Source: a virus. Taken from it: DNA of 64,000 bases. How positions within the stretch are numbered: position 1 is the first letter of the stretch; each line of letters opens with the position of its first letter. Of the stretch, positions 4,693 through 28,865 are shown in pieces. A program made the translations under genes and the position numbers. The notes under the pieces were generated by a model, which saw only the letters and a list, made by a program, of their open reading frames with translations, did not search any database and had not been told where the DNA came from. The stretch is from IMG/VR virus record IMGVR_UViG_3300037089_000424; one strand, written 5' to 3'.

Positions 4693-4717
4693 AATGAAAC
4701 CCCTCGATGGGCAGGTT
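4693..4717 (-). promoter_or_regulatory. copy 2 of AAC-N15-TTTCATT motif
   Basis: AAC CTGCCCATCGAGGGG TTTCATT upstream of the AAGGGGG RBS of the ACP-like gene. Confidence 0.5.
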
Positions 4718-4912
4718 ACGATTTCCTAGGAAATCTCTGAATAGGAAAGTTTAGGTTGGCAAATTGTCCATGAAAGAGGAGCGCAGCCGCATCGTATGTC
4801 TGAGCAGCTTCAATAATGTCAGCATAAGTTCCTAAATAGACCCTCCTGCCTTTGCTGAGGTCTATTCGAGATTGCCACAGCCTTTCGCGAAGGTCAAAGA
4901 AATCCTCTTCAT
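4716..4912 (-). pseudogene. AP2 DNA-binding domain remnant of an HNH-AP2 homing endonuclease
   Basis: WQSRIDLSKGRRVYLGTYADIIEAAQTYDAAALLFHGQFANLNFP is AP2-like; the coupled ATG at 4912 is out of frame with the domain by one base. Confidence 0.65.
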
Positions 4913-5928
4913 GACTTCGCCTTGAACAGCGATCCGTGGTAGAGTTCGTCATCTCGCGGAGTGAACTTTATTCTGGCCTTACCACAGTTGTGTCTCATCT
5001 TCCAAATCTTAGCGAAGCAACACAGTGAGTGTTCGATCTCCCGTAGAGTGAGCCTCTTCTCTTTGCCGCCCACAACCAGATATGGGAATTTCAGGCCAAG
5101 CCTCTCAAAGTGCTGCTCCTGCTCAGTACAAAGCTTCTTGATTGCATCGACGAAGGAAACATAGCTTCTGTCCGGAAAGATGATTGAGATCCCGACCTTG
5201 CAGCCAGGCCCAGGATTGACAAAATCGTTGTGGGTGAAAGGGATTGCACCTACCATGACGAGGTCTGTCAGAACTTCATAAGAGATAAAATTTCCAATGC
5301 AGGGCACTATCATCAAGCGCTCATACACTGCCTCCAGTGTAGGTGCATATTTCACTGCAAGGAATAGATCTTCGATGTTCGAAATAGTGTAATTCAGAAC
5401 TTCGATGTATTTGTCAATCTTAGAGGATCCAATCTCATGTGTGGGGAGTGTGAGGTGGGCACTCGTGAAGACAGGCTTGCCCGCCTTCTTGAGTTCACGG
5501 AGGCTATTGCCAAATTTAACAGGGTCGTACTCAGTGCAAGACGGAACACCTCCTACAGCTTCAAATGTCTCCACTCGATTCAGGAGTCTATACACAATCG
5601 TTCGCCATAAGAGGTTCATCTTTGCGTTATCAAGATCATCATCGCGATGGACGACCTTCTCTACATCATGGTACTCAACAGCGATGTGCTCGTTGTACCA
5701 AATTGTGCCACGGTCAAGCTGGCGGTAGATATTTTCGAACTTGTAGTGTTGAAGAATCGGATCTTTTGTCCATGGCGGAGGCTCCTTTTTGAGAAATCGC
5801 CGCACCCAGATGGAGTGCCTCTCAAACATGAACGTGTAGAACTCATCCAGATGTTTCTGGACCACCTTAACCTTTGGTAATTCCCTCCAAGGGCGATACC
5901 GATCCTTGCTACTCATTGGGGCCTCCAA
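4909..5928 (-). CDS. alpha-glutamyl/putrescinyl-thymine pyrophosphorylase clade 1 (aGPT-Pplase1, amino:DNA transferase family)
   Basis: FERHSIW...PPPWTKDPILQHYKFENIYRQLDRGT N-terminal signature; GNFISYEVLTDL and GPGCKVG HhH-like region; EHSLCCFAK. Confidence 0.85.
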   Translation of the reverse strand: MEAPMSSKDRYRPWRELPKVKVVQKHLDEFYTFMFERHSIWVRRFLKKEPPPWTKDPILQHYKFENIYRQLDRGTIWYNEHIAVEYHDVEKVVHRDDDLDNAKMNLLWRTIVYRLLNRVETFEAVGGVPSCTEYDPVKFGNSLRELKKAGKPVFTSAHLTLPTHEIGSSKIDKYIEVLNYTISNIEDLFLAVKYAPTLEAVYERLMIVPCIGNFISYEVLTDLVMVGAIPFTHNDFVNPGPGCKVGISIIFPDRSYVSFVDAIKKLCTEQEQHFERLGLKFPYLVVGGKEKRLTLREIEHSLCCFAKIWKMRHNCGKARIKFTPRDDELYHGSLFKAKS

Positions 5929-5943
5929 AACATTTCAAAAACA

Positions 5944-6183
5944 CTATATTCCAGAGCTCAGCATGGTCAATCCACATCGTCGGCAACGGTCAGCAGTTGT
6001 GTAAGTAACAGTATTCAAACACAATGTGATATCTTCCCAATCGTGTCGCTTAATCCAGAATTGCCACCAATGCTTCTTTGGATCGGAACAAGGTGTAACA
6101 ATAGAATTCATTGTTGCAATCTGCCCGCTTCTTGACATTCCTGGCTTGATTTGCGCGATCTGCTCTTCCCAAGTTGGTGCCAT
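5944..6183 (-). CDS. small hypothetical protein with H...CxxC tail (DUF1660-like)
   Basis: ATG 6183 behind GGAGG; RHDW...RCRRCG. Confidence 0.55.
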   Translation of the reverse strand: MAPTWEEQIAQIKPGMSRSGQIATMNSIVTPCSDPKKHWWQFWIKRHDWEDITLCLNTVTYTTADRCRRCGLTMLSSGI

Positions 6184-6304
6184 GCTAGCCTCCATTTAGA
6201 AGATTACCACTCGTTTTCGACAGGCTCGGTGATCCCCCTGTCTTACCCTGTTAGACGTGTCCCAGATTCTTTTAGTTTCTTAGGAACCACAAGGCATCAC
6301 CTCC

Positions 6305-6499
6305 TCAAGAGCCATCCTCCATGATGAATCGGACAATGATTTTGACCTTCTCACATCCCTTTGGGATGACACTCTTGCTGATGTAGAGATTTGAGAAGCC
6401 AGCCTTCTTGCCCTTCTCTTCGTTCGCCTTGAACCGAACGCTTCTCTTGCAGACCTTGTCGACTTTCATGAACACAGACCTTTTGTTGGCTTCTTCCAT
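6305..6499 (-). CDS. small basic hypothetical protein
   Basis: ATG 6499 behind AAAGGAGG. Confidence 0.6.
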   Translation of the reverse strand: MEEANKRSVFMKVDKVCKRSVRFKANEEKGKKAGFSNLYISKSVIPKGCEKVKIIVRFIMEDGS

Positions 6500-6512
6500 A
6501 CAATTTCCTCCT

Positions 6513-7592
6513 TTAGATGAAATTGACGTGATCGGGAGCATCGTCTGTAGGCAATTCTCCCAAGACAAGATACGCTTGCAGACTCTTGTTAGCTTGGTTC
6601 AACTGACAGAGCGGAGTGCACTCGTGCGTGTCAATCGACGTATGCAGTTCCAGCCTTCTATGGCCCTTCCAAATATCAATGAATGATTCGTCTTTGATGT
6701 TCCCGAGGACCATTTTTGGGTCTTCCTTATATGCACAGCAAAAGAAGACTTCCCCTGTCGCACCAATCACTGTCTCGAAGGCATGCGCGTGACACCGATG
6801 ATAAGTGCGACCCCAATTCTTCTCAAGAACATCCTTGAACTGACCCTCTGTTGCTAGGACCTTGAACTTGTCAGTTGTGAAGTCCTGTTTTGCTATCTTC
6901 ATGTGATAGAAGATTTCTTCCCACGCAGCAAGATCTTTAGCCTGTAGAATCTCTACTTGATGATAAGGTCTGTACTGACAGTAGTCTATGCCAAGCTTCG
7001 CGCACAGCTGGGCAAAGCTATAGATGTCCATCATCGTCCTTGGCGCCGTAAGATACCCAGCACCAATGGTGCAAGATCCACCATACCGCCCCTTGTAGTC
7101 TGCCATCGCAACCAGATTGAGGCATATTTTCTTGAAATCTGCTGGTCCGGCTCCGTGCGTCAACATATGCTGTGCCATGCAACTTGCGTCCAGACTGACT
7201 CGAACCCAAGTGCAGATATCTATAAAGAATCCTGGGTCCGTCAACAAGGTGCCATTCGTGATCAAACCAACCTGTATCCCAAGGTCTTTCGCAAGTTGCA
7301 TTGCGCCACGAGTGGCTGGATTCACGAGAGGCTCGCCACCGCCAGAAAATGTGATTGCCTTCAGACCGATGTGGCTAAAGTCCTCTATCAATCTGGCCAT
7401 ATCTGAATAAGAGAGGCTGTTGCTGTTCGTGGCGAGCAAGCCTTTGAATATGCAATCCGGACACTCGTGATTGCATGCATTCGTTGGGTCAAGTTTGCAC
7501 GAAATTGGCCAAGCGTCAGTTGGTGATTTGTGCCATTCCCTAACCCTTTCAGCGTGGTACATGATTTTGTTTGGTTTGAACTGATTCATCAC
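6513..7592 (-). CDS. radical SAM protein with SPASM/twitch domain
   Basis: CNHECPDC (CxxxCxxC), FSGGGEPL, ITNGTLL; C-terminal RC...GEVFFCC...LGNIKDESFIDIW...CTPLC. Confidence 0.92.
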   Translation of the reverse strand: MMNQFKPNKIMYHAERVREWHKSPTDAWPISCKLDPTNACNHECPDCIFKGLLATNSNSLSYSDMARLIEDFSHIGLKAITFSGGGEPLVNPATRGAMQLAKDLGIQVGLITNGTLLTDPGFFIDICTWVRVSLDASCMAQHMLTHGAGPADFKKICLNLVAMADYKGRYGGSCTIGAGYLTAPRTMMDIYSFAQLCAKLGIDYCQYRPYHQVEILQAKDLAAWEEIFYHMKIAKQDFTTDKFKVLATEGQFKDVLEKNWGRTYHRCHAHAFETVIGATGEVFFCCAYKEDPKMVLGNIKDESFIDIWKGHRRLELHTSIDTHECTPLCQLNQANKSLQAYLVLGELPTDDAPDHVNFI

Positions 7593-8004
7593 TCCTCCTC
7601 AGTTGTTCAAGTTTCTCATCAATCTGCTTGATCTCTGTTCGCTTGGCTACGAGAAGCTCGCTTATCGCAGCCAACCTCTTGCGGGCCTCTTCCTGACGGA
7701 TCCGTTTCTCGAGTTCTTGTCGACGATACATTCTTCGCTCTCGCCGACAGTCGGCACAAAGATTTGGCAGAGTCAGCTGCCTACCTCTCCACCAATCCAC
7801 TTCTTTCTCAGCCATCTCTATCTTCTTGCCACATTTGCGGCACAAGGATTCGTAAACTATCCATTTTCTCGTAATTGCATCTCCTTTCATTATTTCATTA
7901 TCGCTAAGACCAAATCTGCCACATCCGGAACAGAGCCCATAGGTATTCTCTTTAGGAGCACCACAGTTCCAGCATGGCCCAGACGGAAGTCTTGGATTAA
8001 TCAT
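7549..8004 (-). CDS. zinc-ribbon protein (double CxxC plus zf-trcl-like domain) with coiled-coil tail
   Basis: CWNCG..CSGCG; CRKCGKKIEMAEKEVDWW...PNLCADCRRERR. Confidence 0.7.
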   Translation of the reverse strand: MINPRLPSGPCWNCGAPKENTYGLCSGCGRFGLSDNEIMKGDAITRKWIVYESLCRKCGKKIEMAEKEVDWWRGRQLTLPNLCADCRRERRMYRRQELEKRIRQEEARKRLAAISELLVAKRTEIKQIDEKLEQLRRSDESVQTKQNHVPR

Positions 8005-9442
8005 ATCTTGGCCACCTCCTCATTCTTGAAAATTGGATCTTCCGTGGATGCCTACACAAAATTTCATATTTCCCGCCACAATCTGTGCACCGAAGCTTGG
8101 ATGCAACGGCCCCTTGTGCGGCAAGTTCTGCACCACAAGAGTAGCACACTCGTGGGCAATACAAAAATGAGTCCGGATTGTCAAGCAGTCTGGCTTTGAG
8201 ACGCTCTGCTGGATTTCCTTCTCTCAAAACTTCTTTGTACGCTCGAAGATATTGAACGTGTCGTTCGTACTGATGCAAGTCAACACCTTCGTACGTTTCA
8301 ATGATACGGCCAAGTCTGCCCATGATCAGGTCTTCCTTATTCTCTCTAAGCTTCTCGATGCCGGCCCATTCTGCTTCCCACATACATTTCCTCTTGCCAT
8401 AATCCAGACCAACAACAAAGTCAATCATGTCATGGCCATTGGCTGGCACAACGTATAATGAACTTGGAATTTTTGGCATGTACTCGCCATACTGATGTGT
8501 GACGTCACTGTCAAAATGGAAAGCATTGTCGACCAAGAGCACCGTTCCTGAACTCAAGACTTCGTAGAACCTTGGCGCCAGATTTGCTGTCTGGACGAAC
8601 TTGGGCCCACCGATATGCACAACGCAAGCAGCCGTGTTGAGGTGCCCTCGACTGGTCCCTTGAGCAGTCTTGCCTAGAAATTTGGCGTGAGGCAGCTTGT
8701 TGGACACAGATTGTGGCCAATTGCCATAGATAGCAACGTGGCCTGGATAGTCGTAATATGATAAGAACATCTGCATCCGGGAACGGTGGTTCCCAATGTA
8801 CATGAGATCCCACTCCGGATGTTTGCAGAAAGGCAACGGATCCTCGATTCCTAGGATCGGTGTAGGAAAATTCTCAGCCGGGATATGCAGACTTTCATAT
8901 GGCCAACGCATCGTGCTACAGATCTTCGTAAAGACTTTGGGCTTGAAAGCCTGTACCAGCACAACCCATGTTTTGTCGCGAGTCAGATCCAGAGAGGGCG
9001 CCATCTTGTAGTATCCGGGCATGAAATAAGATTCGACTCCAAATGACTCCAGCGTGAAGACGAAGCCAAGGTCAATGTCATGCTCGAAATATAGGACCAA
9101 TCCTTCATAGCCCGCAATGACCTTGTTGGCCAGCACGATATACGGTATGTGATCTTTGCCAGCGAAGGTTGTGTTCGTTGGGCCACACTCTACAAGAAGA
9201 ACATCCAGATCCTTCGTATGGCCGAATGGACGATATGTAAGTTGCTTAGGGAAGCGTTTCTGCAGAGCCTTGAACGCTTCCCAATGTGCTTTTCCGATCT
9301 CAGACAAGACGACAATCTCGACGCCATTCTTCAAAAGACACTGCCAAAGACGAACACGTATGCGGCTGCCACCTGACGACGTACCTTTTTGTGACAAGTC
9401 CAGATGAAAAGCTTGTCCATACTTAAGAGTACCAAGCCGCAT
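7997..9442 (-). CDS. GT-B glycosyltransferase resembling T4 DNA beta-glucosyltransferase, with C-terminal Zn ribbon
   Basis: DLMYIGNHRSR...VAIYGN...AKFLGK...VVHIGG..F...APRFYEVLSSGTVLLVDNAF parallels the BGT C-lobe as I recall it (DVIYGGSFR...FTGK...LRVWETMASDAVMLIDEEF); C-terminal CYSCG...CTDCGG. Confidence 0.7.
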   Translation of the reverse strand: MRLGTLKYGQAFHLDLSQKGTSSGGSRIRVRLWQCLLKNGVEIVVLSEIGKAHWEAFKALQKRFPKQLTYRPFGHTKDLDVLLVECGPTNTTFAGKDHIPYIVLANKVIAGYEGLVLYFEHDIDLGFVFTLESFGVESYFMPGYYKMAPSLDLTRDKTWVVLVQAFKPKVFTKICSTMRWPYESLHIPAENFPTPILGIEDPLPFCKHPEWDLMYIGNHRSRMQMFLSYYDYPGHVAIYGNWPQSVSNKLPHAKFLGKTAQGTSRGHLNTAACVVHIGGPKFVQTANLAPRFYEVLSSGTVLLVDNAFHFDSDVTHQYGEYMPKIPSSLYVVPANGHDMIDFVVGLDYGKRKCMWEAEWAGIEKLRENKEDLIMGRLGRIIETYEGVDLHQYERHVQYLRAYKEVLREGNPAERLKARLLDNPDSFLYCPRVCYSCGAELAAQGAVASKLRCTDCGGKYEILCRHPRKIQFSRMRRWPRYD

Positions 9443-9459
9443 ACGTGTCTCCCCATTTC

Positions 9460-9873
9460 TCAGGATACATTATCCAACTTGTCAGCAATCTCCTGAAGAC
9501 GACTGTAGAGCACCTCGTCCGTCATGTTCGATGTGACAAATTCTTCCGAGAGTGCCCGTATCTCTTCAGCAACATCGCCAACAGTGGGGTTGGTGCTATT
9601 GCTTACCTTGGATGACTCCTTGGCCGACTTTCTCTTAGCTCGACATTCGGGACACCGTTTGGGCATAGAGAAGTTCTCGCCCTCTCTCTCCTTCTTTGCC
9701 ACCAGGTCCTGCCACCACTTGTATTCCTTGGCAGTCATGATGATTTCTTTGCTACATTCGATACATGTGCCCGCAGTGACACTAGCACCATCACCTTGAA
9801 TCTCGGGAGATCTCTCTTCTGCCTGCTCCTCCCAGCGAGGGTTCCCTCTCATTTTATTCATTGCGTGAGACAT
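9460..9873 (-). CDS. zf-trcl-like zinc-ribbon protein (paralog of 7549..8004)
   Basis: CIECSKEIIMTAKEYKWW...PKRCPECRAKRK. Confidence 0.7.
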   Translation of the reverse strand: MSHAMNKMRGNPRWEEQAEERSPEIQGDGASVTAGTCIECSKEIIMTAKEYKWWQDLVAKKEREGENFSMPKRCPECRAKRKSAKESSKVSNSTNPTVGDVAEEIRALSEEFVTSNMTDEVLYSRLQEIADKLDNVS

Positions 9874-10708: not shown

Positions 10709-10995
10709 GCTGGTTTCTTCCTCCTTTTTGGTTTTGACTCCGTCGTCTTCAGTGTACGAGGATCTGTGTATGACATTCCTGCCATCAGAGTGATCCTCTT
10801 TGCTATTTCGTAGAGAGCAGGGATTTCCTTCCGCATGATAGTTCCCTTCTTTGCGCAAGCCAAGACAGTACGCCTAGAACTCCAAAGGACGTTCCAATGC
10901 TTGAGTTGATAGTTGGCCTCCTTCACAGCCATCCTGATCTCAGAGATAGCATTGTCAAGATGGCAATTTACTACATTCAGTGCTTCTCTTCTCAT
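10705..10995 (-). CDS. hypothetical protein
   Basis: ATG behind AAAAGGAG; ATGA overlap with the ugd-like gene. Confidence 0.6.
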   Translation of the reverse strand: MRREALNVVNCHLDNAISEIRMAVKEANYQLKHWNVLWSSRRTVLACAKKGTIMRKEIPALYEIAKRITLMAGMSYTDPRTLKTTESKPKRRKKPA

Positions 10996-11094
10996 AGAAG
11001 CTCCTTTTGAATGAAAGTGGTTTGGAGAGAAGGTCTCGAACCTTCGTTGATGGGTCCAAAGTCCATTGGCCTACCCCCCTAACCAACCTCCGAG

Positions 11095-11130
11095 CAAGAA
11101 ATGTGTGGGGCAGAGTTTCCCCTGCCCCAC
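11095..11130 (-). terminator. rho-independent terminator candidate
   Basis: 9-bp stem GTGGGGCAG/CTGCCCCAC (11105-11113, 11122-11130) followed by ACATTTCTT on the minus strand. Confidence 0.6.
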
Positions 11131-11171
11131 TGGAGTTACACGACTTCACTAGGACTACACGACGTCAGGGA

Positions 11172-12239
11172 TCATTCTTCTTCTTCTTCACTGGCCTTCA
11201 TCTTCATCTTTGCCTTCTTGAAGATGATGCGCAGTTTCTTGCCGAGGAATTTCACATTGCCCTTGAACTCGTATTTGCCCTTGCCAGCAGGTTTCCAGTC
11301 GGTAGACTTCATGCCGATGGCCGCAGGCTTGAGCCGAGTCAAAAGACGAACGACAAATCCCTCATCGCGATTCGCTCTGGCAATCCGAGCGAATCTCTTG
11401 CCGGCGATGGAAACGAAGAACAACGGTTTCTTGGCTTTCTGGGTGAGTTCACCACCAAGTTTCTTGTACCGAGACCTGTTCAAGATTGACTGCAAGGTCT
11501 CAGACAGGCCAGTGGACTTCGGTGCGGATTCCTTCTCCGACCGATCCTCCCTTTCCTTCTTGGCTTTCTTCTTGGCTTTCTTCACAGTACCTCCGCCTTC
11601 TTCCTTCTTGGCTTTCATGACTGTATTGCAATTATCGGATTCCAGACATTGTCTGCATTCCGGAACGTCTGGGTCGCGGAATTTGCCAAAGCAGTCCTGT
11701 ACACCAGGAGGGATGGGTGAGGACGGCGGACGAGGAGTATAACTCTCGGGATCGATCCGGACCAGGTTGGATTTCTTCCCGCCCTTTTCCTCCTCATCTT
11801 CGTCCTCGTCTTCGTCGTCAGTTTCTTCGTCATCCTCATCCGAGTCTTCATCTTCGTCATCGTCATCGGACTTCTTTTTCTTCTTTTTGGGTTTGTCGTC
11901 TTCGTCTTCATCCGAATCATCATCGGAGTCATCGGAGTCATCATCGTCATCGTCCGAGTCTTCATCTTCGTCATCGTCATCGGACTTCTTTTTCTTCTTT
12001 TTGGGTTTGTCGTCTTCGTCTTCATCCGAATCATCATCGGAGTCATCGGAGTCATCATCGTCATCGTCGGAGTCATCGGAGTCGTCGGAGTCATCATCAT
12101 CGGAGTCGTCGGAATCGTCATCATCTTCATCATCCGACTTCTTTTTCTTCTTTGGTTCTTCGTCGTCATCATCAGCATCTGGCGCTGACTTCCCTTTCTT
12201 GGCCTTGTTGTGCTTTTTCTTTTTTCCTACATTTTTCAT
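11172..12239 (-). CDS. protein with long Asp-rich/Lys-block disordered N-terminus, Cys4 motif and basic C-terminal domain
   Basis: alternating D/S and K blocks; PIPPGVQDCFGKFRDPDVPECRQCLESDNC; ATG behind AGGGAGG. Confidence 0.8.
   Translation of the reverse strand: MKNVGKKKKHNKAKKGKSAPDADDDDEEPKKKKKSDDEDDDDSDDSDDDDSDDSDDSDDDDDDSDDSDDDSDEDEDDKPKKKKKKSDDDDEDEDSDDDDDDSDDSDDDSDEDEDDKPKKKKKKSDDDDEDEDSDEDDEETDDEDEDEDEEEKGGKKSNLVRIDPESYTPRPPSSPIPPGVQDCFGKFRDPDVPECRQCLESDNCNTVMKAKKEEGGGTVKKAKKKAKKEREDRSEKESAPKSTGLSETLQSILNRSRYKKLGGELTQKAKKPLFFVSIAGKRFARIARANRDEGFVVRLLTRLKPAAIGMKSTDWKPAGKGKYEFKGNVKFLGKKLRIIFKKAKMKMKASEEEEE
11840..12067. repeat. exact tandem duplication, 2 x 114 bp (38 codons), inside the acidic protein
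   Basis: 11840-11953 is identical to 11954-12067. Confidence 0.9.
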
Positions 12240-12816
12240 TCAGTCCTCCCTTTAGTCGTGTATATACGGATCGGATTTCTTGAAGATAACGTCTTGCGTC
12301 TGCTACAGAAATGCTCATGGCCTGTCGGATGTGGCGTGGTTTAATCACGAACTTCTTCCAGCCTTGTACTAGAATACCCATAGAGTTGAGTTTGTTTCTC
12401 CGACAGAAATCTCGCCAGGCTGTTTCAGTCACCTCCTCTCCAGGGTCAATGATCGCTTCCATGAATTTGTAGGCTCCGGAGGATAGGTGTGGCTTGTACC
12501 CTTTCGTCCAGAACCATGTTACCCTTGAATGGTCCTGATGAGACAATTTGTGAGGCTCTACAGCATCCAGATCAACCTCCTGTCCACGACGCATCTCTTG
12601 GTTTCGAAAACGAATCATTTTCTTATAATGGTTATACAAAGCTCGCTTGAAATATCGAGCGAACCGTTCTTCCCCGGTTGGGAATTTGTTGCAACAACGA
12701 ACCAATACAAGCAGGCCCTCGCCAACCAAATCGTCTCTCTCCATTCGATAGTTTCCCCGAATGGAGTACCGTCTGGCTGCCCACTTGATGAGATTCTGAA
12801 ATCTACGAAGAGCCAC
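12172..12816 (-). CDS. phage-encoded sigma-70-family (region 2) RNA polymerase sigma factor
   Basis: LIKWAARRY...ERDDLVGEGLLVLVRCCNKF...FARYFKRALYNHYKKMIR; GTG start has no obvious RBS (see frameshift finding). Confidence 0.8.
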   Translation of the reverse strand: MALRRFQNLIKWAARRYSIRGNYRMERDDLVGEGLLVLVRCCNKFPTGEERFARYFKRALYNHYKKMIRFRNQEMRRGQEVDLDAVEPHKLSHQDHSRVTWFWTKGYKPHLSSGAYKFMEAIIDPGEEVTETAWRDFCRRNKLNSMGILVQGWKKFVIKPRHIRQAMSISVADARRYLQEIRSVYTRLKGGLNEKCRKKEKAQQGQEREVSARC

Positions 12817-12832
12817 TTCTACACTGTAAATT

Positions 12833-12919
12833 TCAGAAGCGGGGAAATCGCTGGACAGCAGTCGAGATTCTCGGGAACCTTTTCTTCCCGACTCTTGGAA
12901 ATCTCACTACCTTAGCCAT
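12833..12919 (-). CDS. 28-aa peptide MAKVVRFPRVGKKRFPRISTAVQRFPRF (leader peptide or frameshifted N-terminus of the sigma factor)
   Basis: strong AGGAGG RBS then ATG 12919; three RFPR copies written with different synonymous codons. Confidence 0.6.
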   Translation of the reverse strand: MAKVVRFPRVGKKRFPRISTAVQRFPRF

Positions 12920-13472
12920 TCCTACCTCCTTTCTTCGCTCGGACAGCCCTCTTGCTACGAAGGACCACTGAACGATTGGTCCGTGTTTTCCGCTTTCGTT
13001 GACGGATATGTATAGTCTTTCTGGACTCAGTTCTAGCGAGACCAACCTTGCTTGTGGGCTGCGACGTCTTGCCAACTCGAGAGTGCGCTCGACGCAAGAG
13101 CTTAATACCTTTGGCAAATCTGCCAGGCATACTCTCTGTGCCAATGTAGAACCCACATCTGAGGCACTTGACTTGTCCTTTATTGACATCGAGCACCTCC
13201 AATTTTCCAATTCTACAATGACACTGCTGACTTGGCTTCAGTCTAGGCCACCGCAGCGGACGAGGATATCTCTTCATCAGCCGTGGTAAGCGTATGGTGA
13301 ACATTGCCCAGGTCCAATTCTCCCTCTCAAATCTCCTATCAAGATTGAAGACCTGGACACCCCACTCCGGGAGGACTTTGTGTATCTCCCCAGTCATCCC
13401 TGAAACTTGGTGCACGACCCGACTACCTGGTACAAGACCATTCTGCCTGGCTAGGGCAAGATCCATAGTCAC
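12912..13472 (-). CDS. hypothetical protein (SH3-like N-terminus, CxC...CxxC Zn ribbon, basic tail)
   Basis: LVPGSRVVHQVSGMTGEIHKV; CHCRIG...KCLRCG; AAAGGAGG RBS. Confidence 0.65.
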   Translation of the reverse strand: MTMDLALARQNGLVPGSRVVHQVSGMTGEIHKVLPEWGVQVFNLDRRFERENWTWAMFTIRLPRLMKRYPRPLRWPRLKPSQQCHCRIGKLEVLDVNKGQVKCLRCGFYIGTESMPGRFAKGIKLLRRAHSRVGKTSQPTSKVGLARTESRKTIHIRQRKRKTRTNRSVVLRSKRAVRAKKGGRNG

Positions 13473-18134: not shown

Positions 18135-19562
18135 TTACTGAACAACAGTGGCATTCACATTCTTAATCGGAATCGCTGCAACGAGAGCAGCGTCCGACAC
18201 CGGACCATCAGCCGGAACAGCAGAGGTATTCTCCCCAAGAGCGATGCTTTCCGCAATCATCCGAGCGATATCTGTCTCTTGGCAGAAAGGCGAATGCAAA
18301 CGCTGCATGCCAGCTTGTGACGGAGAGATGTAGAACATGTCCCCCCGATCTATCAATTGCTCCGCGCCCTTCCGGCCAAGTATCGTACGAGAGTCCCCAT
18401 CGCCAGGAACACGGAACGACAGGCGAGCAGGGAAATTGACCTTGACCTTTCCGGGCAAAACATCGACGCTGGGCCTCTGGGTAGCAGCAATGACGTGGAT
18501 CCCAGCAGCGCGGGCCATCGAACTTATCTCGGCCATCGACCTGATGAAGAGCTTCTTTTCCTGGAGGATCAGGTCAGCCATTTCGTCAATGACCAAGACC
18601 CAATAAGGCAGCCGATCCTTGGGGTCCAACTGTGAATTGAGTTCTTTCAGATTCTTGACCTTGCGGATCTGCAGATAAGACATCCGCCGACGCATTTCCA
18701 GAACGATCTTCTCCATCAAAGCCAAAGCTTCGTACACTCCTGCAACTGGCTCCGAAGCCACATGAGGCAAATCTTTGTATGGCAGGAGCTCCACTGACTT
18801 CGGATCAATCATATACAACTGGAGCTCTTTGGGTGACCGAATATGGGTCAATGAGTTGATGATCCCATTGAGCAACACAGACTTGCCCGAATTTGTAGAC
18901 CCTGCGATGAGCAGATGAGGCAGCAGAGTCAGGTCTTCCAAGAACGGGTCACCATTGGCACGGATGCCAAGATTGAGAGGCAACGCCATGTCATAACGAT
19001 GGGCCAGAACATTTTTCAAGGTCGCTTTGAAATCCACAACTTTGTGCTCCTTGTTCGGAACCGTGATTCCGACACAACCTTTGCCAGGGATCCTCTGGAC
19101 GGTGACCGCATCGGCTGGGATAGCAACAGCCAAGTCTTCGTGAACGGATTTCAGCCGCCTGACACGAGTGAAACGTTCTGGTACAAATTCGTATTCAGTA
19201 ACGATTGGGCCGGAGTTGATGGCGACAACCTTGCCGGTGACTTCCATGTCAGCACATTTCTCTTCGATCAACTTGACGACCCTTTTCTGCTCGGGATCCC
19301 ACTGAGGAATCAGACGAGGGAACCGCTGGGTTTTGCCGGTTGGGGGAACCACGAAAGGCTTCTGGGAGAAAGTTGTGACAGTGGTAAACCAACCGATGGA
19401 TTCGACACGCGAGTATTCCTTTGCCAAGGCTGTCAGAATACGCTTGGATTCCTTCACCTTTTCCTTCTGACTAGGAACATCTCGCTCGAAGACCAATAGC
19501 TCAAGCTGCTTGGCCTTCTTGTTGAAGACGGTGGCAACGAAATTCTGGAAATGATTTTCCAT
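18135..19562 (-). CDS. ftsK: FtsK/SpoIIIE-family DNA translocase (motor domain only)
   Basis: PHLLIAGSTNSGKS, IDPKSVEL, VIDEMADL, ARAAGIHVIAATQRPSVDV, DSRTILG..GAEQL...GDM; ATG 19562 behind AAAGGAG; no TM or gamma domain. Confidence 0.95.
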   Translation of the reverse strand: MENHFQNFVATVFNKKAKQLELLVFERDVPSQKEKVKESKRILTALAKEYSRVESIGWFTTVTTFSQKPFVVPPTGKTQRFPRLIPQWDPEQKRVVKLIEEKCADMEVTGKVVAINSGPIVTEYEFVPERFTRVRRLKSVHEDLAVAIPADAVTVQRIPGKGCVGITVPNKEHKVVDFKATLKNVLAHRYDMALPLNLGIRANGDPFLEDLTLLPHLLIAGSTNSGKSVLLNGIINSLTHIRSPKELQLYMIDPKSVELLPYKDLPHVASEPVAGVYEALALMEKIVLEMRRRMSYLQIRKVKNLKELNSQLDPKDRLPYWVLVIDEMADLILQEKKLFIRSMAEISSMARAAGIHVIAATQRPSVDVLPGKVKVNFPARLSFRVPGDGDSRTILGRKGAEQLIDRGDMFYISPSQAGMQRLHSPFCQETDIARMIAESIALGENTSAVPADGPVSDAALVAAIPIKNVNATVVQ

Positions 19563-19622
19563 GGTAGATAATCTCCTTTGATTTCTAGGATGGATGACCA
19601 TCCTGGTTGTCACAGCACTGAG

Positions 19623-21772: not shown

Positions 21773-21779
21773 GGGTATT

Positions 21780-21808: not shown

Positions 21809-21822
21809 GAAAAATCTTGGTA

Positions 21823-21845: not shown

Positions 21846-21862
21846 TCTCGTCGCGATGAGCC

Positions 21863-22871: not shown

Positions 22872-23817
22872 AAGTCTTCCTCTCCCAAGGGTGCGGATCC
22901 TGAAGTAGGATCTGCATTCGACTGTCTTTGAAATATGGCTGAGCCTGCTCGATGATGTCCCAAGCTGCTTGGCGGCCGACATCGTTGATGTCAACATCAG
23001 GTGGGAACTTGGCTATCTTGACAATAGGCAAAATGCCAGCCAGTCGGTCAGCAATCTTGACTGACTCAGGCCAAGCGTCACGATCCAAAGCAACCACAAC
23101 ACCCTCCAAACATTTTTCATACACTAGGATACGATGCAACTGCGCATCGGACAGAGACTTCCCAAATATAGCGAAGACAAGCCGTTTGGAATGCTCGAAT
23201 GATCCGATGGTCAAAGCATTGATGATGGACTCAACCAAAATGATCTTCTTTGGCCGCCGGGCCACCCCAACACAATAGACAAGCTCGCTCTTGTAGCTTG
23301 CCTTTGGATTATAGAACTTTGGTTCACGCTTCTTGTATCGCCTACCCTGCCACCAGACGACTTCTCCTTCTGCATTGAAGACTGGGAATATGATGTATCC
23401 CCAACTCCTGCCACTTCGACAGTATCCGACTTGCATCATGTCAAGGAGTTTCTTATTAAGGCCACGAGACGCGAGATATGAATAGACACTCTCCCGAATG
23501 GGATTCTCCAAATCCTTCAGGAGTTCAAATTCCTCCGGAAGCTTGACTTCTGTTTCTTCACTCTCAATAACAGTTGTAACATAGCTGGTTGGGAGTTTAC
23601 CACCGACGAATGTGGACAAGCGTGCTGCGTTCACACCGTGTTTGCTGACATGCCATTTACAATCCTGATGGAAGCAACAGCCCAAACCGTTCGATGTATT
23701 GATGTACAGTTTGAACTCGGTGTCTTCACAACGAGGGCAACACGCACGGAAGCCTTCGTTCGTCTCTTTGACAACAGCAAACAGATTCTGCAGATATGAG
23801 AAGTCACCTTGAATCAT
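22852..23817 (-). CDS. dnaG: DNA primase (Zn finger + Toprim)
   Basis: CCPRC...LYIN...CCFHQDC; YLASRGL; IIFPVFN..GEVVWWQGR; ILVESIINAL; VALDRDA. Confidence 0.9.
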   Translation of the reverse strand: MIQGDFSYLQNLFAVVKETNEGFRACCPRCEDTEFKLYINTSNGLGCCFHQDCKWHVSKHGVNAARLSTFVGGKLPTSYVTTVIESEETEVKLPEEFELLKDLENPIRESVYSYLASRGLNKKLLDMMQVGYCRSGRSWGYIIFPVFNAEGEVVWWQGRRYKKREPKFYNPKASYKSELVYCVGVARRPKKIILVESIINALTIGSFEHSKRLVFAIFGKSLSDAQLHRILVYEKCLEGVVVALDRDAWPESVKIADRLAGILPIVKIAKFPPDVDINDVGRQAAWDIIEQAQPYFKDSRMQILLQDPHPWERKTYEPTVY

Positions 23818-25106
23818 TCGCTTTTCCTCAATTCAGACATGGCATAGATTGACCGATCCATCTTTATTGGGATGACTCCTCCCCGGCCAACATCCCGAGC
23901 GTACGACAAGATAAGTCTCGCTCGTTCAGGCTTCACTTGCGCTTCCGCATTACTTTGACAAAGAGCAATGAGAAAGTCTAGCACCCAAAACTGTGATATG
24001 TCCTCTGCAAAATCTTTGGGCCCAAGAATCTCCTTTTCCAGTGCAGCCCTGTTACCTTTTGAGGCTGTCCAAATCGGGATACTCTTGGTGCATGCTAATC
24101 CTCTCAGATCAATAGCAGCTTGACCGATATTCATGCGTCGTTCCTCGAATTTCTCATTTGGCTGGAACAGATACAAGTAATCCACAACTAACAGATCAAC
24201 CTTGTGACCCTGTTCCTCAAGCTCGTCCAGCCATGCTTCGATATCACGGATTCTCGCCCTCCCAGTTGGGAACTGCTTGATGAAAAGTTTCCCTTTCACC
24301 TGATGAAGAGAGATCCTAAGCCTCTTCCGTGCCTTAACTCTAGCTCTCTTGGACCTTGTCAACTCATTAGCTGGAACACCAGACATAAGAGCATCAATTC
24401 TACGACGATATTTCTTGGCAGAAATCTCTCCTGTTGCAATAGCCACTGTCTTCTTCTGCCACATGGCCCCAGCAGCAATGTCCCCAAGGATAGTAGATTG
24501 TCCTGCCTTTGGGGATGCAAGAATAATGGCTAGTTCGCCACCGCCAAGACCTCCAGCCATGTACTTGTCAAGAGTCGGGAAATAGAATGTCCTGATAACA
24601 TTCACTCGATCTTCCCGCCATCGGTCTCTAGCTGTAATATCTTTCCAATATTCTACACCGAGATCAGATTCCTGACCGAATGCTGCTAGATCATGAAACC
24701 GTTTGATTGCATTATCATAATGCCTAGCATTGACATCCTTCTCTGCTTCCGCCAAGGCGTCTCGGAACTTCATATCCTTGGCAAACTCGATGGCTTGGTT
24801 CAAGATGACAATCTTGTCCCGAAGCTTATCCCCATAGACCAGACGGATCTCGTGACGATATGCTCGCCAGAGCTCTCGTCTCTTCCTACCAAGCCAAGCC
24901 TTGACAATTTCAGACAACGTGCTTCGCGAGAGGGTTATTGGTTCCTTGTGATGAGCGTAGATTTCCTTGACGAGTCTGGCGATATCTGTCAAGATTGGCG
25001 ATGCAAAGAACTTAGGCTCTACCAGACTCATCATCTTCGCAGGTTCTCTGATCAGCAAAGCCACAATCTTTCTCTGGAAGACATCACTCCACCCGTATTC
25101 AGCCAC
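23814..25106 (-). CDS. dnaB: DnaB/T4-gp41-like replicative helicase (Walker A reads GQS)
   Basis: TLDKYMAGGLGGGELAIILASPKAGQST, FIKQFPTG, LLVVDYL, LRGLA...PIWTAS. Confidence 0.88.
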   Translation of the reverse strand: MAEYGWSDVFQRKIVALLIREPAKMMSLVEPKFFASPILTDIARLVKEIYAHHKEPITLSRSTLSEIVKAWLGRKRRELWRAYRHEIRLVYGDKLRDKIVILNQAIEFAKDMKFRDALAEAEKDVNARHYDNAIKRFHDLAAFGQESDLGVEYWKDITARDRWREDRVNVIRTFYFPTLDKYMAGGLGGGELAIILASPKAGQSTILGDIAAGAMWQKKTVAIATGEISAKKYRRRIDALMSGVPANELTRSKRARVKARKRLRISLHQVKGKLFIKQFPTGRARIRDIEAWLDELEEQGHKVDLLVVDYLYLFQPNEKFEERRMNIGQAAIDLRGLACTKSIPIWTASKGNRAALEKEILGPKDFAEDISQFWVLDFLIALCQSNAEAQVKPERARLILSYARDVGRGGVIPIKMDRSIYAMSELRKSE

Positions 25107-25126
25107 TACTGAATCCTCCTAACTAC

Positions 25127-25150
25127 AATGAAACCCTCTATCTAGAGGTT
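25127..25150 (-). promoter_or_regulatory. copy 3 of AAC-N14-TTTCATT motif
   Basis: AAC CTCTAGATAGAGGG TTTCATT followed by GTAGTTAGGAGG and the helicase start. Confidence 0.55.
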
Positions 25151-25797
25151 CTAGCTGTCTCAATGATTCTCTTTCCAAAATCTTTATTAGCCAATATGTA
25201 TCTTGCTCTGCTCTTGATCATGTCTATTTCTTCTCTTGGCAAATCGTCATAGACATGAGAAGAGTACAAAGCCATGTACCAAGGACTGAGGAACCTGTGC
25301 TGCGCAAAGATAATGTCATTGATTGAGAGGCCAGTGACTTCTTGAATCTGAGCAACATGATCTCTAGAGTTGATTACTCCATCCAGAACTCGTTTCTCAT
25401 TGACTTTATTTGTCCCAAGACCTTTCTTCCACTCATCCTCAGTTGTGTAATGTTTACGTTGCTTCTTCTCGAGCCAACCAAAAATCTCCATCGCTTTCTC
25501 ACTAGCCAAGAATGTCGGAGGTGGCAGATACTTTGTCTGCTTGAAATATCCGTACTCAGACATCACCTTCAAGTACAGAGTTGGTTCAATCTTCTTGAAA
25601 CACAATTCCTTAGCCAAAACCAGAAAGCTCTGTGCAGCGAACTTGCCCCTCTTAGTCTTCAGAATATCAAAACTTCTGACTGCATAGAGTTCTGGCTTCC
25701 TTTTGATGGAGAGTGTGTTATACACTCGATGCAGGATCTTGGCTGTGATCTTTTCAGCGGCTGTGAGTCTGAACCTTGGAAATCTTCTGGCCTTCAT
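25138..25797 (-). CDS. hypothetical replication-module protein
   Basis: ATG 25797 behind GAGGA; upstream of the helicase; starts MKARRFPRF. Confidence 0.7.
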   Translation of the reverse strand: MKARRFPRFRLTAAEKITAKILHRVYNTLSIKRKPELYAVRSFDILKTKRGKFAAQSFLVLAKELCFKKIEPTLYLKVMSEYGYFKQTKYLPPPTFLASEKAMEIFGWLEKKQRKHYTTEDEWKKGLGTNKVNEKRVLDGVINSRDHVAQIQEVTGLSINDIIFAQHRFLSPWYMALYSSHVYDDLPREEIDMIKSRARYILANKDFGKRIIETARTSR

Positions 25798-26057
25798 TGA
25801 TTCCTCGCCCATGCTCGATTGATCCGACGAGAGCGCTTCTGAATATCTCTTCTAGCCTTTCTTCTCATCTTGAAGAGGCGTTTACTTCTATTGACACGGT
25901 GACCATGACGAAGGCGACTTCTACGTTTCCACTCTGTGGGGCTGGCTGGGCTAACTTCTGGTTCTGGTTTCTTAGGAAATATACCTTCCATGATATCTCG
26001 AAGTAGCTCTCCGATACCACGCTTCTTCTTTTCCCGGTCTCCTCTAAGAATATTCAC
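25794..26057 (-). CDS. small Arg/Lys-rich protein
   Basis: GTG behind AGAGGTG; ATGA-type overlap with the next gene. Confidence 0.55.
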   Translation of the reverse strand: MNILRGDREKKKRGIGELLRDIMEGIFPKKPEPEVSPASPTEWKRRSRLRHGHRVNRSKRLFKMRRKARRDIQKRSRRINRAWARNQ

Positions 26058-26246
26058 CTTTTCACCTCTCTTCTACAGGATGTGTGTGCTCTAACACAAA
26101 TCGTCGTTCTTCAGACGATTTGTAGTAAAGACTTAGCAGCATATACTGACTACAAGCATATAAGTGTACTGGAGCCTCATGACACTCCTTACAGCAAAGG
26201 ACACCCGGTCATGCTAGGGCATGCTTGCGCGCGCATGGAGCCTTAC

Positions 26247-26612
26247 TTAGCCCTTAGCTAAGGGGTCCTCTCCTTCTTTTGGAGCCGGAGACCTGAGATT
26301 AATGAGCTCTGTGTAATTCTTTTCGTCATCTTCCAGGAACTTGAAGTCCTGTGCCACATAGCCAACCAATCTCATCCATGCCCCTTGATCTCTCAATAAC
26401 GGCTGCATCTTTCTCACGAGCTCCAGTTCAAAAAGCTCTCCGATGATGGTCTTTGAGATATGATTTGCGAGGACACGAGACTGTGTGGCCAGGACCTTGC
26501 TCGTGATGTCGTACTTGTTTTTCTTATGGAAATCCGAGGCTTCCATTATGGCTCTCTCAATCAGATTGTTCAGATTATGAACAGTGTAAATTAGTTTCTC
26601 TGCTTCAGACAT
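26247..26612 (-). CDS. hypothetical protein
   Basis: ATG behind AGGAGGG. Confidence 0.7.
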   Translation of the reverse strand: MSEAEKLIYTVHNLNNLIERAIMEASDFHKKNKYDITSKVLATQSRVLANHISKTIIGELFELELVRKMQPLLRDQGAWMRLVGYVAQDFKFLEDDEKNYTELINLRSPAPKEGEDPLAKG

Positions 26613-27597
26613 CGTCCCTCCTACGAATCACCTTAATTTTACAGATTTTCTCGTCCAAGAACCAACGAAATCTAGCTAAGGAATGCCTCGCTAGATAGTC
26701 ATTGTGTAAGTCCAAAAAATCAGTAATAAAGACGACGTTCTTTCCAGTGGCTTTCTTTCTCAACACACGTCCCATGCGTTGAATTGTCAATTCCCATGAA
26801 AGTCCTGCAGCGGCATTGATCCAACTATCTACGCCACCTGCAATGTCTTCGCCAACATCAAAAATCGGAGAAGCAATCAGAACAGGAAGCCTCCCTTTAA
26901 TGAAATCCTTCTTTACACACTTTCTTACATATAGCGGAGTACCCCCGAAAATAAATTCTACAGGTGCTTCCATTTTCTTTCTGAAGGCAGCCAACAATAT
27001 CCGGCCATGCTTCACTCTGCCAACAGTGATCAGAACTCTTAAGCCCTTGGCCATATAGCGAAATGCTTCTCGCAGAACTAATCTGTTCCGGGCAACATTG
27101 GTTACAATTGCTTCGCGATATGATTGCATATAATTCCCGAACACCTCGTCTGCTTTTGGTTCCACAAGACGAATAATTGGCCGTGCAGACCTCCCAAGGG
27201 CTACGAGCTCTCTATTCTTGATCCTTGCTATTACTGGACCCACCAAACTCTCGTAGAGAAGCATCTTCTCTAGATTGGATTCATCAATTGTGCCTGAAAG
27301 ACCAAATCGCATCCTGGCTGAACATCTGGATGCTATTGACTTCAGCTGTCGTCGTTTATTAACATGGATTTCATCTATTATGAGAATATCGCAAGAAGAG
27401 AGAAATCTTTTGAATTGGAAAGAAGACTCAACAAGCCTGGCTGCTGTTTGCACAGTCGCCACCAAGACTCCCTTCTCAGGGATCTTACGATTGCCACCGC
27501 CCAAATTGTGAACAGACAGACTTAGATATTTCTTGAACATGCCACAAGCCTGTACCATAAGTCCGGCCCTGTGTACAAGATAGAGGGCATTCGTCAT
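26605..27597 (-). CDS. C-terminal part of UvsW-like SF2 helicase (motifs Ia-VI)
   Basis: ALYLVHR, LVATVQT, IIDEIH, FGLSGT, DVGEDI, IQRMGRVLR; ATG 27597 overlaps the stop of the 62-aa ORF. Confidence 0.85.
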   Translation of the reverse strand: MTNALYLVHRAGLMVQACGMFKKYLSLSVHNLGGGNRKIPEKGVLVATVQTAARLVESSFQFKRFLSSCDILIIDEIHVNKRRQLKSIASRCSARMRFGLSGTIDESNLEKMLLYESLVGPVIARIKNRELVALGRSARPIIRLVEPKADEVFGNYMQSYREAIVTNVARNRLVLREAFRYMAKGLRVLITVGRVKHGRILLAAFRKKMEAPVEFIFGGTPLYVRKCVKKDFIKGRLPVLIASPIFDVGEDIAGGVDSWINAAAGLSWELTIQRMGRVLRKKATGKNVVFITDFLDLHNDYLARHSLARFRWFLDEKICKIKVIRRRDDV

Positions 27598-27782
27598 TGT
27601 AGTTGTGCACCTAATTCGATTAAATCTGAACGATGAAATAGAGAGCGCTCGCTCTTCTTCAAAGGCCACCAAAGCGCATCGAGTAAAATGTTTAGAAGCA
27701 TTCTTGTGGATCTTTGGCCCCTTGTTTTCGTAGCACATATTCTTCTATGCCACTCTGTTCTCTCGTAAACCCCAACAGGCAT
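27594..27782 (-). mobile_element. 62-aa ORF with NUMOD3-like N-terminus, probable homing-endonuclease remnant splitting the helicase
   Basis: MPVGVYERTEWHRRI resembles NUMOD3-type starts; it lies exactly between helicase motif I and motif Ia. Confidence 0.5.
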
Positions 27783-27784
27783 TG

Positions 27785-28294
27785 TTATTTTCCTTTCTGA
27801 TGGTCTACTTCAGCAATGATTCCAGCAGCAATGATCGTCTTCCCTGCGTTGGTAGCACAATGTATGATCCCAGATTTCTTTCTTAACGCAATTCTAAGTA
27901 CAGAAATCTGTTCTGGTCTGATTTCTACCTTTTCTCTGAACCGAAATCTGGCTCCTTCTTCAGACAACACCAAATGTTTCCTAAAATCGGTTACACGATA
28001 TGGGATCCGCAGAGTCTTCAAGTGTCTAACGACACGTCTAAGCAAGCCAGTGCCAAAGCTATTTCCTCTCAATTCATAGAATTTGATGTAGCCACTCTCT
28101 GCCTTGACCTTGGCAATCCTTTTGTCTCTCTCATCTGAAGAGAGATAGAAGGAGCCTACCACTTTTCGGATGATGTGCTGCATCTTCCAGTAGGCATTTT
28201 TGTCTTTCACACGAAGGCACTGGAACATGGTCTCCAGTTGTTTCTTCGGTCCGCTGAAATAAGTCCGAGATGGCCTAACTTCAAGCGATATCAC
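27785..28294 (-). CDS. N-terminal part of UvsW-like SF2 helicase (through Walker A)
   Basis: SGYIKFY...FGTGLL...IRPEQ...SGIIHCATNAGKT followed by a stop; GTG 28294 behind AAGGA. Confidence 0.8.
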   Translation of the reverse strand: MISLEVRPSRTYFSGPKKQLETMFQCLRVKDKNAYWKMQHIIRKVVGSFYLSSDERDKRIAKVKAESGYIKFYELRGNSFGTGLLRRVVRHLKTLRIPYRVTDFRKHLVLSEEGARFRFREKVEIRPEQISVLRIALRKKSGIIHCATNAGKTIIAAGIIAEVDHQKGK

Positions 28295-28865
28295 GAATGA
28301 GATCCTTACAGCGAATGTGAGTCTCGAAGTAAGACTCTGCACGCTCCTGTTCCTTTGTCTTCCCCAACCGTGGGCACCGAATCAGACGCACGAAACGCTT
28401 CGTACGCGAGAAACGAACAGCCCGCCGTGGGAACCTCTTACGATTCATATTTGCCTCCTTAATCATGCTGAGCCAGAGTTTCCCCCAGACACAAGTTGGG
28501 GGTCTGACCATCTCATATCCAGAACCATAACACGGCATGCTGTTGTCGATGTCTTTCTCGGGTCTTGACCTATTGTGTAAATAGAGCCGTCGTAAGAGGT
28601 CTGTCCGATTCCCTTCGTCTGACAGGCCACAGTTAAAACAAGCCTCTCTGAGACGATCTGTTTTGAGGGTGACCAGCCATGCCAAGAGCCTTTCAAATCT
28701 CTCACAAATCACTTGGCCAGAAGAGACTTTCAGAGGATATCTCTCCCGCAGATGGGCTAGAAGCAAGAAGTCGTCAGATCTGTCAGTATTTTTGAGTCTA
28801 GGGAATCTGAGCTTCGTGAATCTTCGGTAGATCACAGGTGAAGGTTTCGGTCGTCTCATCCGCAT
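28281..28865 (-). CDS. SAP-domain protein with two RFPR motifs
   Basis: LKTDRLREACFNCGLSDEGNRTDLLRRL matches the SAP pattern; ATG 28865 behind AGGAGG; second in-frame ATG 28448 behind AAGGAGG. Confidence 0.65.
   Translation of the reverse strand: MRMRRPKPSPVIYRRFTKLRFPRLKNTDRSDDFLLLAHLRERYPLKVSSGQVICERFERLLAWLVTLKTDRLREACFNCGLSDEGNRTDLLRRLYLHNRSRPEKDIDNSMPCYGSGYEMVRPPTCVWGKLWLSMIKEANMNRKRFPRRAVRFSRTKRFVRLIRCPRLGKTKEQERAESYFETHIRCKDLIRDIA

Follow-up and report, generated by a model that had tools for sequence, protein, structure and literature searches.

RFPR, a short linear motif recurring in DNA-handling proteins of a clade of phages with hypermodified thymidine

Introduction

The tetrapeptide Arg-Phe-Pro-Arg (RFPR), together with its aromatic variants (R[FWY]PR), recurs in unrelated proteins of an uncultured phage, a part of whose genome, a 64,000-nt stretch of IMG/VR virus record IMGVR_UViG_3300037089_000424, is analyzed here in full (hereafter, the window). 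Several peptides of comparable size are known to recur in proteins that work on DNA. The clamp-binding peptides include the bacterial QL[SD]LF, the eukaryotic PIP box QxxLxxFF, the APIM [KR]-[FYW]-[LIVA]-[LIVA]-[KR] and the gp45-binding C-termini of T4 proteins. RFPR is similar to these in being one short peptide common to many DNA enzymes, usually terminal and conserved within variable flanks, and shares with APIM a basic-aromatic-x-x-basic flavor; however, it fits none of their consensuses, and arrays with a spacing of two residues are atypical of them. The AT-hook (R-G-R-P) and SPKK elements are also similar, with a strict core of three to four residues that contains Arg and Pro, basic flanks, one to several copies, and location in the disordered tails and linkers of otherwise unrelated DNA-handling proteins. 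In contrast to the AT-hook, RFPR has Phe for Gly, a different order of residues, a distribution limited to one phage clade and a preference for Ile, Val or Pro at position -2; the G-R-P core is lacking, with Gly never found at position 2 in the enriched set, and the basic flanks are present. The prokaryotic AT-hook-like motif of H-NS and Lsr2 is Q/R-G-R (PMC8476142).

Other described peptides are more distant. Nuclear localization signals are likewise short basic tags on the ends and linkers of DNA-working proteins, but no compartment or import machinery was detected for this phage, and the RFPR core requires Phe and Pro. Proline-rich antimicrobial peptides that act in the ribosome tunnel differ in that RFPR has one Pro per motif, no PRP or PP runs, and is mostly found in large enzymes. 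In the precursor peptide WprA, Trp and Arg are joined by the enzyme WprB within each of three W-P-R motifs (PMC11851443), and the window also encodes an aromatic-Pro-Arg triplet three times in a short tail (12839-12904). Full-text searches of the literature retrieved no description of an RFPR, RYPR or RWPR motif. RFPR is a proteome-wide short linear tag that would act much as AT-hooks or clamp-binding peptides do and fits the consensus of neither.

Proteome-wide peptide tags are rare in phages and are informative because they show how a virus arranges its enzymes in space. The tag described here marks about one tenth of the proteins in an uncultured clade of ~140-kb phages with hypermodified thymidine and spans replication, recombination, DNA modification, homing endonucleases and packaging.

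Enrichment of RFPR in the window and in related phages

The initial annotation of the window, made from sequence alone, put the number of RFPR copies expected by chance at well under one. The values computed here, 0.14 from the overall amino acid composition and 0.18 from the composition of each protein, bear this out, compared to 8 copies observed (five in four ordinary proteins and three in one small open reading frame [ORF]); the ~84 called ORFs of the window have a total of 20,200 residues. When residues were shuffled within each non-virion protein, five copies were never reached in 3000 rounds. Given that the tetrapeptide was chosen after being seen, it was also compared with the best of all 160,000 tetrapeptides in 300 shuffled proteomes; the Poisson p of 4.6e-7 for RFPR in the window corresponds to the ~5% quantile of the best p values. 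Thus, the family-wise significance in the window is only ~0.05, which leaves some room for chance, and when distinct proteins are counted and the small ORF is excluded, the enrichment is not significant. The evidence from the window alone is borderline, that is, suggestive and not conclusive. It had also been pointed out that the virion half of the window lacks the motif; this is correct, but given that only 0.06 copies are expected there, the absence is uninformative.

Searches of the GenBank phage collection with the window, using megablast and tblastn, detected no similar deposited phage genome, and scans of viral contigs with single window proteins gave no match. Relatives, namely contigs with syntenic genes at 34-62% protein identity, were recovered by protein searches of large databases, exact look-ups of the encoding contigs and, later, alignment-seeded scans. 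Three of these contigs, G001 (104 kb), G002 (93 kb) and G004 (62 kb), were analyzed whole; their completeness according to CheckV is 62-72%, which implies genomes of ~140 kb. Together with the window, they are referred to as the four genomes.

In each of the three contigs, RFPR is the top tetrapeptide by the number of distinct proteins, by many orders of magnitude, with p values from 1e-14 to 1e-20. There are 16 copies vs 0.33 expected in G001, 17 vs 0.26 in G002 and 12 vs 0.23 in G004; RFPR occurs in 15, 12 and 10 proteins, respectively, and R[FWY]PR in 15 of 158, 12 of 133 and 12 of 87 proteins, so that the motif is carried by about one protein in ten (~10% of the proteome). A composite of the relatives L008 and L007 contains 11 copies vs 0.11 expected. 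In the control set of 76 other phage loci that encode an FtsK-like protein, a single copy was found, compared to 2.4 expected. Because the related phages, and not the window alone, show it, we consider the question settled: the excess is genuine and clade-specific. The enrichment proposed in the initial annotation has therefore withstood comparison with both shuffled sequences and relatives. Chance is refuted by the excess in four independent relatives (p below 1e-14) and its absence in the control loci.

Selection on the peptide and the form of the motif

An element that is maintained at the DNA level and only happens to read RFPR is a possible source of such an excess, and the few out-of-frame RFPR reads that a six-frame scan of the window found could be counted in its favor. 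However, the 50 in-frame RFPR copies use 45 distinct 12-mers, and every codon for Arg (six), Phe (two) and Pro (four) is represented, at approximately genome-wide frequencies. This diversity, with ordinary codon usage, indicates that selection acts on the peptide rather than on the DNA, in agreement with the conclusion previously drawn from the differing codons of the window copies. Most of the six-frame RFPR occurrences lie within called genes, in the coding frame, and several of the remaining ones are either genes missed by the simple caller or belong to the overlapping +1 frame described below. Given this codon diversity, a DNA-level element can be rejected along with chance.

The core of the motif is strict. 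Among xFPR peptides, Arg is found at the first position in 50 cases and any other single residue in 3 at most; among RFPx peptides, the last position is Arg in 50 cases and any other residue in no more than 2. In RxPR, the variable position is Phe in 50 cases and Tyr in 8, and in RFxR, it is Pro in 50 cases and Ala in 6. Hence all four positions are coupled, in an all-or-none manner. Outside the core, position -2 is occupied by Ile, Val or Pro in 63% of the copies (17% background) and position -3 by Lys or Arg in 37% (13% background); the flanks are richer in Lys and Arg (22% vs 13%) and in Pro, and neighboring copies in an array are separated by just 2-8 residues. No significant preference is seen at the position that follows the motif (38% hydrophobic vs 32% background). 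The extended motif can be written roughly as [K/R]-[I/V/P]-x-R-F-P-R, with Phe occasionally replaced by Tyr or Trp.

Copies in the window and their conservation in orthologs

All copies reported in the initial annotation, including those of RLPR, RYPR and RWPR, were found by the six-frame scan in the coding frame and on the minus strand, which encodes all genes of the window. Six of the seven window carriers keep the motif at the same position in orthologs, despite divergent flanks, so that conservation, too, bears out the original proposal. Altogether, 20 families carry the motif in the four genomes, 13 of them at the same place in two or more genomes. Copies are gained and lost, and their number varies between orthologs.

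A 224-aa protein encoded upstream of DnaB (ORF 25138-25812, probable start 25797) has RFPR at residue 10 of its N-terminal tail (25774-25785). In a five-row alignment (A2) of the window's own 219-aa copy with homologs at 36-52% identity, R-F-P-R is invariant and its neighbors are variable; homologs in L011, L012 and L014 have the motif as well. In the AlphaFold2 (AF2) model, residues 1-13, that is, the tail with the motif, have pLDDT below 50. A PDB profile search with this family gave no match. A T4 gp59-type helicase loader, the best relevant candidate among weak Atlas leads (0.78), was considered for this protein and is not relied on.

The FtsK/SpoIIIE-like ATPase (18135-19613; Pfam) contains RFPR (19314-19325) approximately 10 residues before the alpha domain. 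The same column of the alignment (A3) is occupied by RFPR in P0009 (62% identity) and P0010 (51%) and by KFPR in P0014 (46%), and the motif is missing in P0015, P0016 and P0019 (48-50%); the FtsK-like proteins of L011-L014 carry it. A 186-aa zinc-ribbon protein (12912-13472) contains RLPR (13281-13292), RYPR (13260-13271) and RWPR (13242-13253) in the cluster RLPR-x3-RYPR-x2-RWPR, which is located in the linker that joins the beta-rich N-terminal region to the Cys-rich zinc ribbon. RYPR and R[FW]PR are invariant in four homologs (A1), with the first copy reading R-x-P-[RC]; the motifs are also present in L011-L013, L013 having three FPR copies, and in L014 the last copy has decayed to RFAR. 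The AF2 model of this protein is too poor for use (pLDDT 48).

The SAP-like protein (28281-29093, probable start 28865), which is encoded upstream of the superfamily 2 (SF2) helicase, has two copies (28797-28808 and 28425-28436). A large protein search with it returned only the query itself, but a homolog with 29% identity was found in G001 via synteny. The first RFPR aligns exactly with RFPR of this homolog, and in the C-terminal cluster the degenerate RFSR of the window aligns with the homolog's RFPR. In every relative examined, the gene upstream of the SF2 helicase contains two to four copies of the motif, whatever its sequence. In the window, this helicase is split in two (26605-27738 and 27785-28342, minus strand), as the initial annotation remarked; in relatives, it is a single gene of 493-499 aa in the same place (L008:6782-8281, L011:1209-2690).

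In an AP2-like 78-aa ORF (4716-4952), for which the Pfam AP2 match is weak and the PHROG match is an HNH endonuclease, RFPR (4725-4736) is located three residues from the C-terminus; this tail aligns with the C-terminus of a 169-aa homolog from G001, which ends in the same NFP-x-RFPR. RWPR (8006-8017) is found two residues before the stop of a 481-aa putative DNA glycosyltransferase (7997-9442), the only window carrier that lacks an ortholog comparison, given that no ortholog with a complete C-terminus was found. The remaining three window copies (12893-12904, 12869-12880 and 12839-12850) belong to the small ORF at 12833-12919, which is discussed below.

Position in proteins and identity of the carriers

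R[FWY]PR is preferentially located at protein ends. Among 60 copies, 39 (65%) lie within 30 residues of an end, vs 26% expected; 15 fall in the N-terminal 30 residues and 24 in the C-terminal 30 (13% expected for each), 21 are within 12 residues of the C-terminus, and five form the last four residues of the protein. Other copies are located in linkers that connect domains, such as those of the tandem P-loop kinases in L007. R[FWY]PR shows the features by which short linear motifs are recognized, namely a conserved island in poorly conserved, flexible sequence and independent occurrence in unrelated families, with gain and loss between orthologs. We conclude with confidence that RFPR is a clade-specific short linear motif that is subject to protein-level selection and is carried, in one to four copies on flexible termini and linkers, by ~10% of the proteome.

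Nearly all identifiable carriers act on DNA. In the relatives, these include a RecA-like recombinase and a helix-turn-helix protein resembling the small terminase (both in the N-terminal tail), as well as the portal proteins of three relatives (in the C-terminal region), so that the lack of copies in virion proteins noticed in the window does not extend to the clade. Further carriers are endonuclease VII/NUMOD3 homing endonucleases, with the motif in the linker that adjoins the DNA-binding NUMOD3 repeats, P-loop and helical 5-hydroxymethyldeoxyuridine (5-hmdU) DNA kinases, an amino-acid:DNA transferase, and a radical SAM enzyme in a modification cluster. The helical-domain 5-hmdU kinase protein has the motif at or near the C-terminus in relatives and has lost it in the window. 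A phage metallopeptidase family and several small proteins, including those encoded beside the SF2 helicase, also carry the motif. The family A DNA polymerase (PolA), DnaB, primase, the SF2 helicase, the HU-like protein, the sigma factor and all tail and capsid proteins are free of it in all four genomes.

L007 (11908-13709) encodes three P-loop 5-hmdU DNA kinase domains in a row, as a 400-aa tandem pair and a 205-aa paralog, with the second and third domains each preceded by RFPR-L-[PK]K. No P-loop 5-hmdU DNA kinase was found among the window proteins scanned.

Exposed ends and linkers are also the places where sites for enzymes that act on the carriers lie, and the motif could be such a site, for protease cleavage, for Arg or Pro modification, or for degradation in the timed turnover of early proteins. 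The copies between the tandem kinase domains of L007 and the conservation of a metallopeptidase family in the relatives are compatible with this possibility. However, the five copies that are the very last residues leave nothing beyond them to cut off, cleavage within the tight arrays would free nothing longer than di- to octapeptides, no type of residue is significantly preferred directly after the motif, and the metallopeptidase carries the motif itself. Accordingly, we regard an enzyme site as unlikely.

The positional data also bear on the suggestion, made in the initial annotation, that RFPR is active in the ribosome tunnel. We found no support for this activity: the copies are located at the extreme C-termini, the N-termini and the linkers of many unrelated proteins, and a stalling motif would not be conserved at the last four or the first ten residues of such proteins. 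Chance, composition, a DNA-level element and ribosome stalling, taken together, can be practically dismissed as explanations of the motif.

What the motif might do

Very probably, RFPR is a common anchor or address tag. We tentatively favor the possibility that it is an auxiliary, AT-hook-like anchor to the phage's own DNA, a reading of the sequence data whose chances we put somewhat below even. The two arginines would grip the DNA backbone or groove, like an AT-hook or SPKK element, the Phe-Pro pair would kink the chain and wedge in, and avidity would increase with tandem copies. In this way, the hypermodified genome would retain the enzymes of its replication, recombination, modification, cutting and packaging. 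This reading is favored because DNA is the one thing common to the carriers, including such lone workers as the homing endonucleases, and because the arrays are spaced by only 2-8 residues and their flanks are basic and Pro-rich. Furthermore, nearly every conserved early protein is strongly basic, so that a tag with two basic residues finds few oppositely charged proteins to bind, which also favors a DNA ligand. Modifications at C5 of thymidine fill the major groove and would favor contacts in the minor groove. If DNA binding is confirmed, RFPR would be a new minimal DNA-binding element, possibly adapted to modified DNA.

Several considerations weigh against a DNA anchor. We infer the DNA ligand solely from the identities of the carriers, and a generic DNA hook need not be specific to a clade. 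The preference for Ile, Val or Pro at position -2 and the strict core suit a protein pocket equally well. The absence of the motif from PolA, DnaB, primase, the HU-like protein and the sigma factor is the pattern expected if one of these were a hub. Finally, the motif is carried by the metallopeptidase family, which has no established link to DNA.

A second reading, which we consider nearly as likely and place close behind the DNA anchor, is that RFPR is a docking or localization tag that binds a pocket on one shared protein and so draws the DNA-handling enzymes to a replication or packaging center or to a compartment, in the way that clamp-binding motifs or nuclear localization signals work. 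The candidate partners would be a motif-free phage protein (the HU-like DNA-coating protein, DnaB, PolA, the SF2 helicase or a poly-acidic protein described below) or a host protein. The position, conservation and turnover of the motif form the pattern of a classical short linear motif; the core is strict, with Ile, Val or Pro favored at -2; the core replication proteins, which are motif-free in all genomes, are natural hub candidates; and the conserved poly-acidic protein is encoded beside motif-rich genes in all four genomes. However, no partner protein was identified. No sliding clamp gene was found in the window and no DNA_pol3_beta match in G001, G002 and G004 (62-72% complete), nor was a gene for a bacterial-type single-stranded DNA-binding protein found in these three contigs. 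Moreover, copies two residues apart are awkward for a single globular pocket, and one hub would have to serve stand-alone homing endonucleases and the portal as well as the enzymes of replication and modification. Co-folding of the three-copy RFPR tail with the poly-acidic protein returned 0.00, the no-answer value of the tool, which speaks neither for nor against binding.

The inference of the initial annotation that RFPR is a docking or localization motif of DNA-acting proteins, comparable to a PIP box, thus holds in part: the carriers are indeed DNA handlers that display the motif on flexible ends and linkers, but no hub was found, and direct DNA binding explains the facts at least as well. 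Should binding to a protein or localization prove correct, the motif would expose a new organizing center of infection.

A more far-reaching variant, which we regard as doubtful, is that RFPR is a true address tag, which would either read hypermodified DNA and so distinguish phage from host DNA, or sort enzymes into a compartment or condensate built by the phage. In the first version, the recombinase, the translocase, the endonucleases, the terminase and the modification enzymes would act on phage and not on host DNA; in the compartment version, the poly-acidic protein would be a candidate scaffold. Either way, RFPR would represent a type of linear sorting signal that has not been described for phages. 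Given that the tag consists of only four to six residues and is easily mutated, the question of what it binds is directly testable with a synthetic peptide. Regardless of its function, RFPR provides a simple sequence handle for spotting DNA-handling proteins among the unannotated genes of the clade.

A conserved +1 frame at the zinc-ribbon gene

The small ORF with three RFPR copies (12833-12919; 28 aa, with ATG at 12919 behind AAGGAGGT), which was originally viewed as a stand-alone peptide, is instead the last third of a longer conserved coding block of ~85 codons (12833-13087, minus strand) in the +1 frame of the zinc-ribbon gene. The +1 frame is open for 118-162 codons in six genomes, that is, the window (12833-13240, minus strand) and five relatives (L007:5517-5990, L011:14089-14445, L012:17378-17866, L013:8464-8823 and L014:14837-15256), and its overlap with the 3' part of the zinc-ribbon gene amounts to 46-97 codons. 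The block begins just past the conserved end of the zinc ribbon with P-x-AKF, followed by KHG and V-x-V-E-Y-V, and then by one to three RFPR copies and a basic end (A5). Among the 15 pairwise comparisons in the +1 frame, 13 have similarity z-scores between 4 and 31 and two have z-scores of -0.7 and 1.3, whereas those of the overlapping basic tail in the zinc-ribbon frame do not exceed 3.6, no better than composition, except for one close pair (14.4). This difference indicates that the +1 frame is under protein-level selection.

No start codon with a ribosome-binding site common to the start of the block was found in the six genomes; a GGAGG-type site and a start codon precede the short RFPR tail in five of the six, and CCC-A is found at the conserved Pro of the block in all six. 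On these sequence features, the product could possibly be a +1 programmed frameshift product, the product of an overlapping gene, or a short tail peptide. A PDB profile search with the +1-frame domain gave no match. A separate idea, in which a +1 shift out of the RFPR ORF would yield the sigma factor (window 12172-12919), finds no support in the relatives: in L007 (5880-6917), the RFPR tail and the sigma gene are separated by a 92-aa gene, and the alignment of the sigma homolog with the sigma ORF of the window starts at residue 1 of the latter.

The three-copy tail resembles WprA, and its aromatic-Pro-Arg core matches W-P-R, which brings up the possibility that RFPR is a substrate for radical-SAM cross-linking, as in the WPR triceptides, by the radical SAM/SPASM enzyme that is encoded within the window (6513-7592, minus strand). 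However, this gene is 5 kb away, inside the thymidine-modification cluster, and its product falls below all NCBIfam peptide-maturase cut-offs (74 bits vs 380 for the best model, and 37 vs 650 for WgkB). Radical SAM enzymes in such clusters act on DNA (PMC8989533). No ortholog of the enzyme was found in three relatives that are equally rich in RFPR, and relatives without a radical SAM/SPASM gene keep the motif. In addition, a cognate maturase, a leader peptide and a recognition partner are all lacking, large enzymes contain most of the copies, and the first Arg is no less conserved than the other residues. Cross-linking of this kind therefore appears highly improbable.

Gene setting and additional observations

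The low-coordinate half of the window consists of replication and DNA modification genes, all on the minus strand: PolA fused to a UDG-like domain, a thymidylate-synthase-like enzyme, the 5-hmdU DNA kinase helical-domain protein, the radical SAM/SPASM enzyme, UDP-glucose dehydrogenase, the FtsK-like ATPase, DnaB, primase, the SF2 helicase, the HU-like protein and the sigma factor. This gene set is that of phages that hypermodify thymidine after replication, a pathway described previously (PMC5889632, PMC8989533).

The thymidine-modification cluster also includes a homolog of acyl carrier protein (ACP) (4424-4672, minus strand, 82 aa), which scores 81.6 bits against an NCBIfam subfamily model (cut-off 71) and 71.6 against the equivalog TIGR00517 (cut-off 70.45). 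It reads D-P-I-D at what we take to be the site of the phosphopantetheine-bearing Ser motif (DSLD) of ACPs. This gene is absent from the same position in L007.

The poly-acidic protein (11172-12239, minus strand; 355 aa) contains ~150 residues of Asp, Ser and Glu runs broken by Lys blocks, with a net charge of about -36 to -38; a conserved domain with Cys and a basic C-terminal domain come next. The protein is present in all four genomes, always directly after the sigma factor gene, and resembles eukaryotic acidic chaperones in style.

A second recurrent peptide is [R/K]-L-R-E-[A/S]. LREA is found in seven window proteins vs 0.48 expected, and RLRE in 15 copies in 13 proteins of G001 vs 0.86 expected. 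The window sites include residue 147 of the protein encoded at 28281-29093, residues 26 and 37 of 56191-57267, residues 715 and 747 of 57820-60333, residue 54 of 61419-62102 and residue 29 of 62554-63459. The carriers include virion proteins, and orthologs with 40-47% identity retain the peptide, which may be either another shared motif or simply a favored helix sequence.

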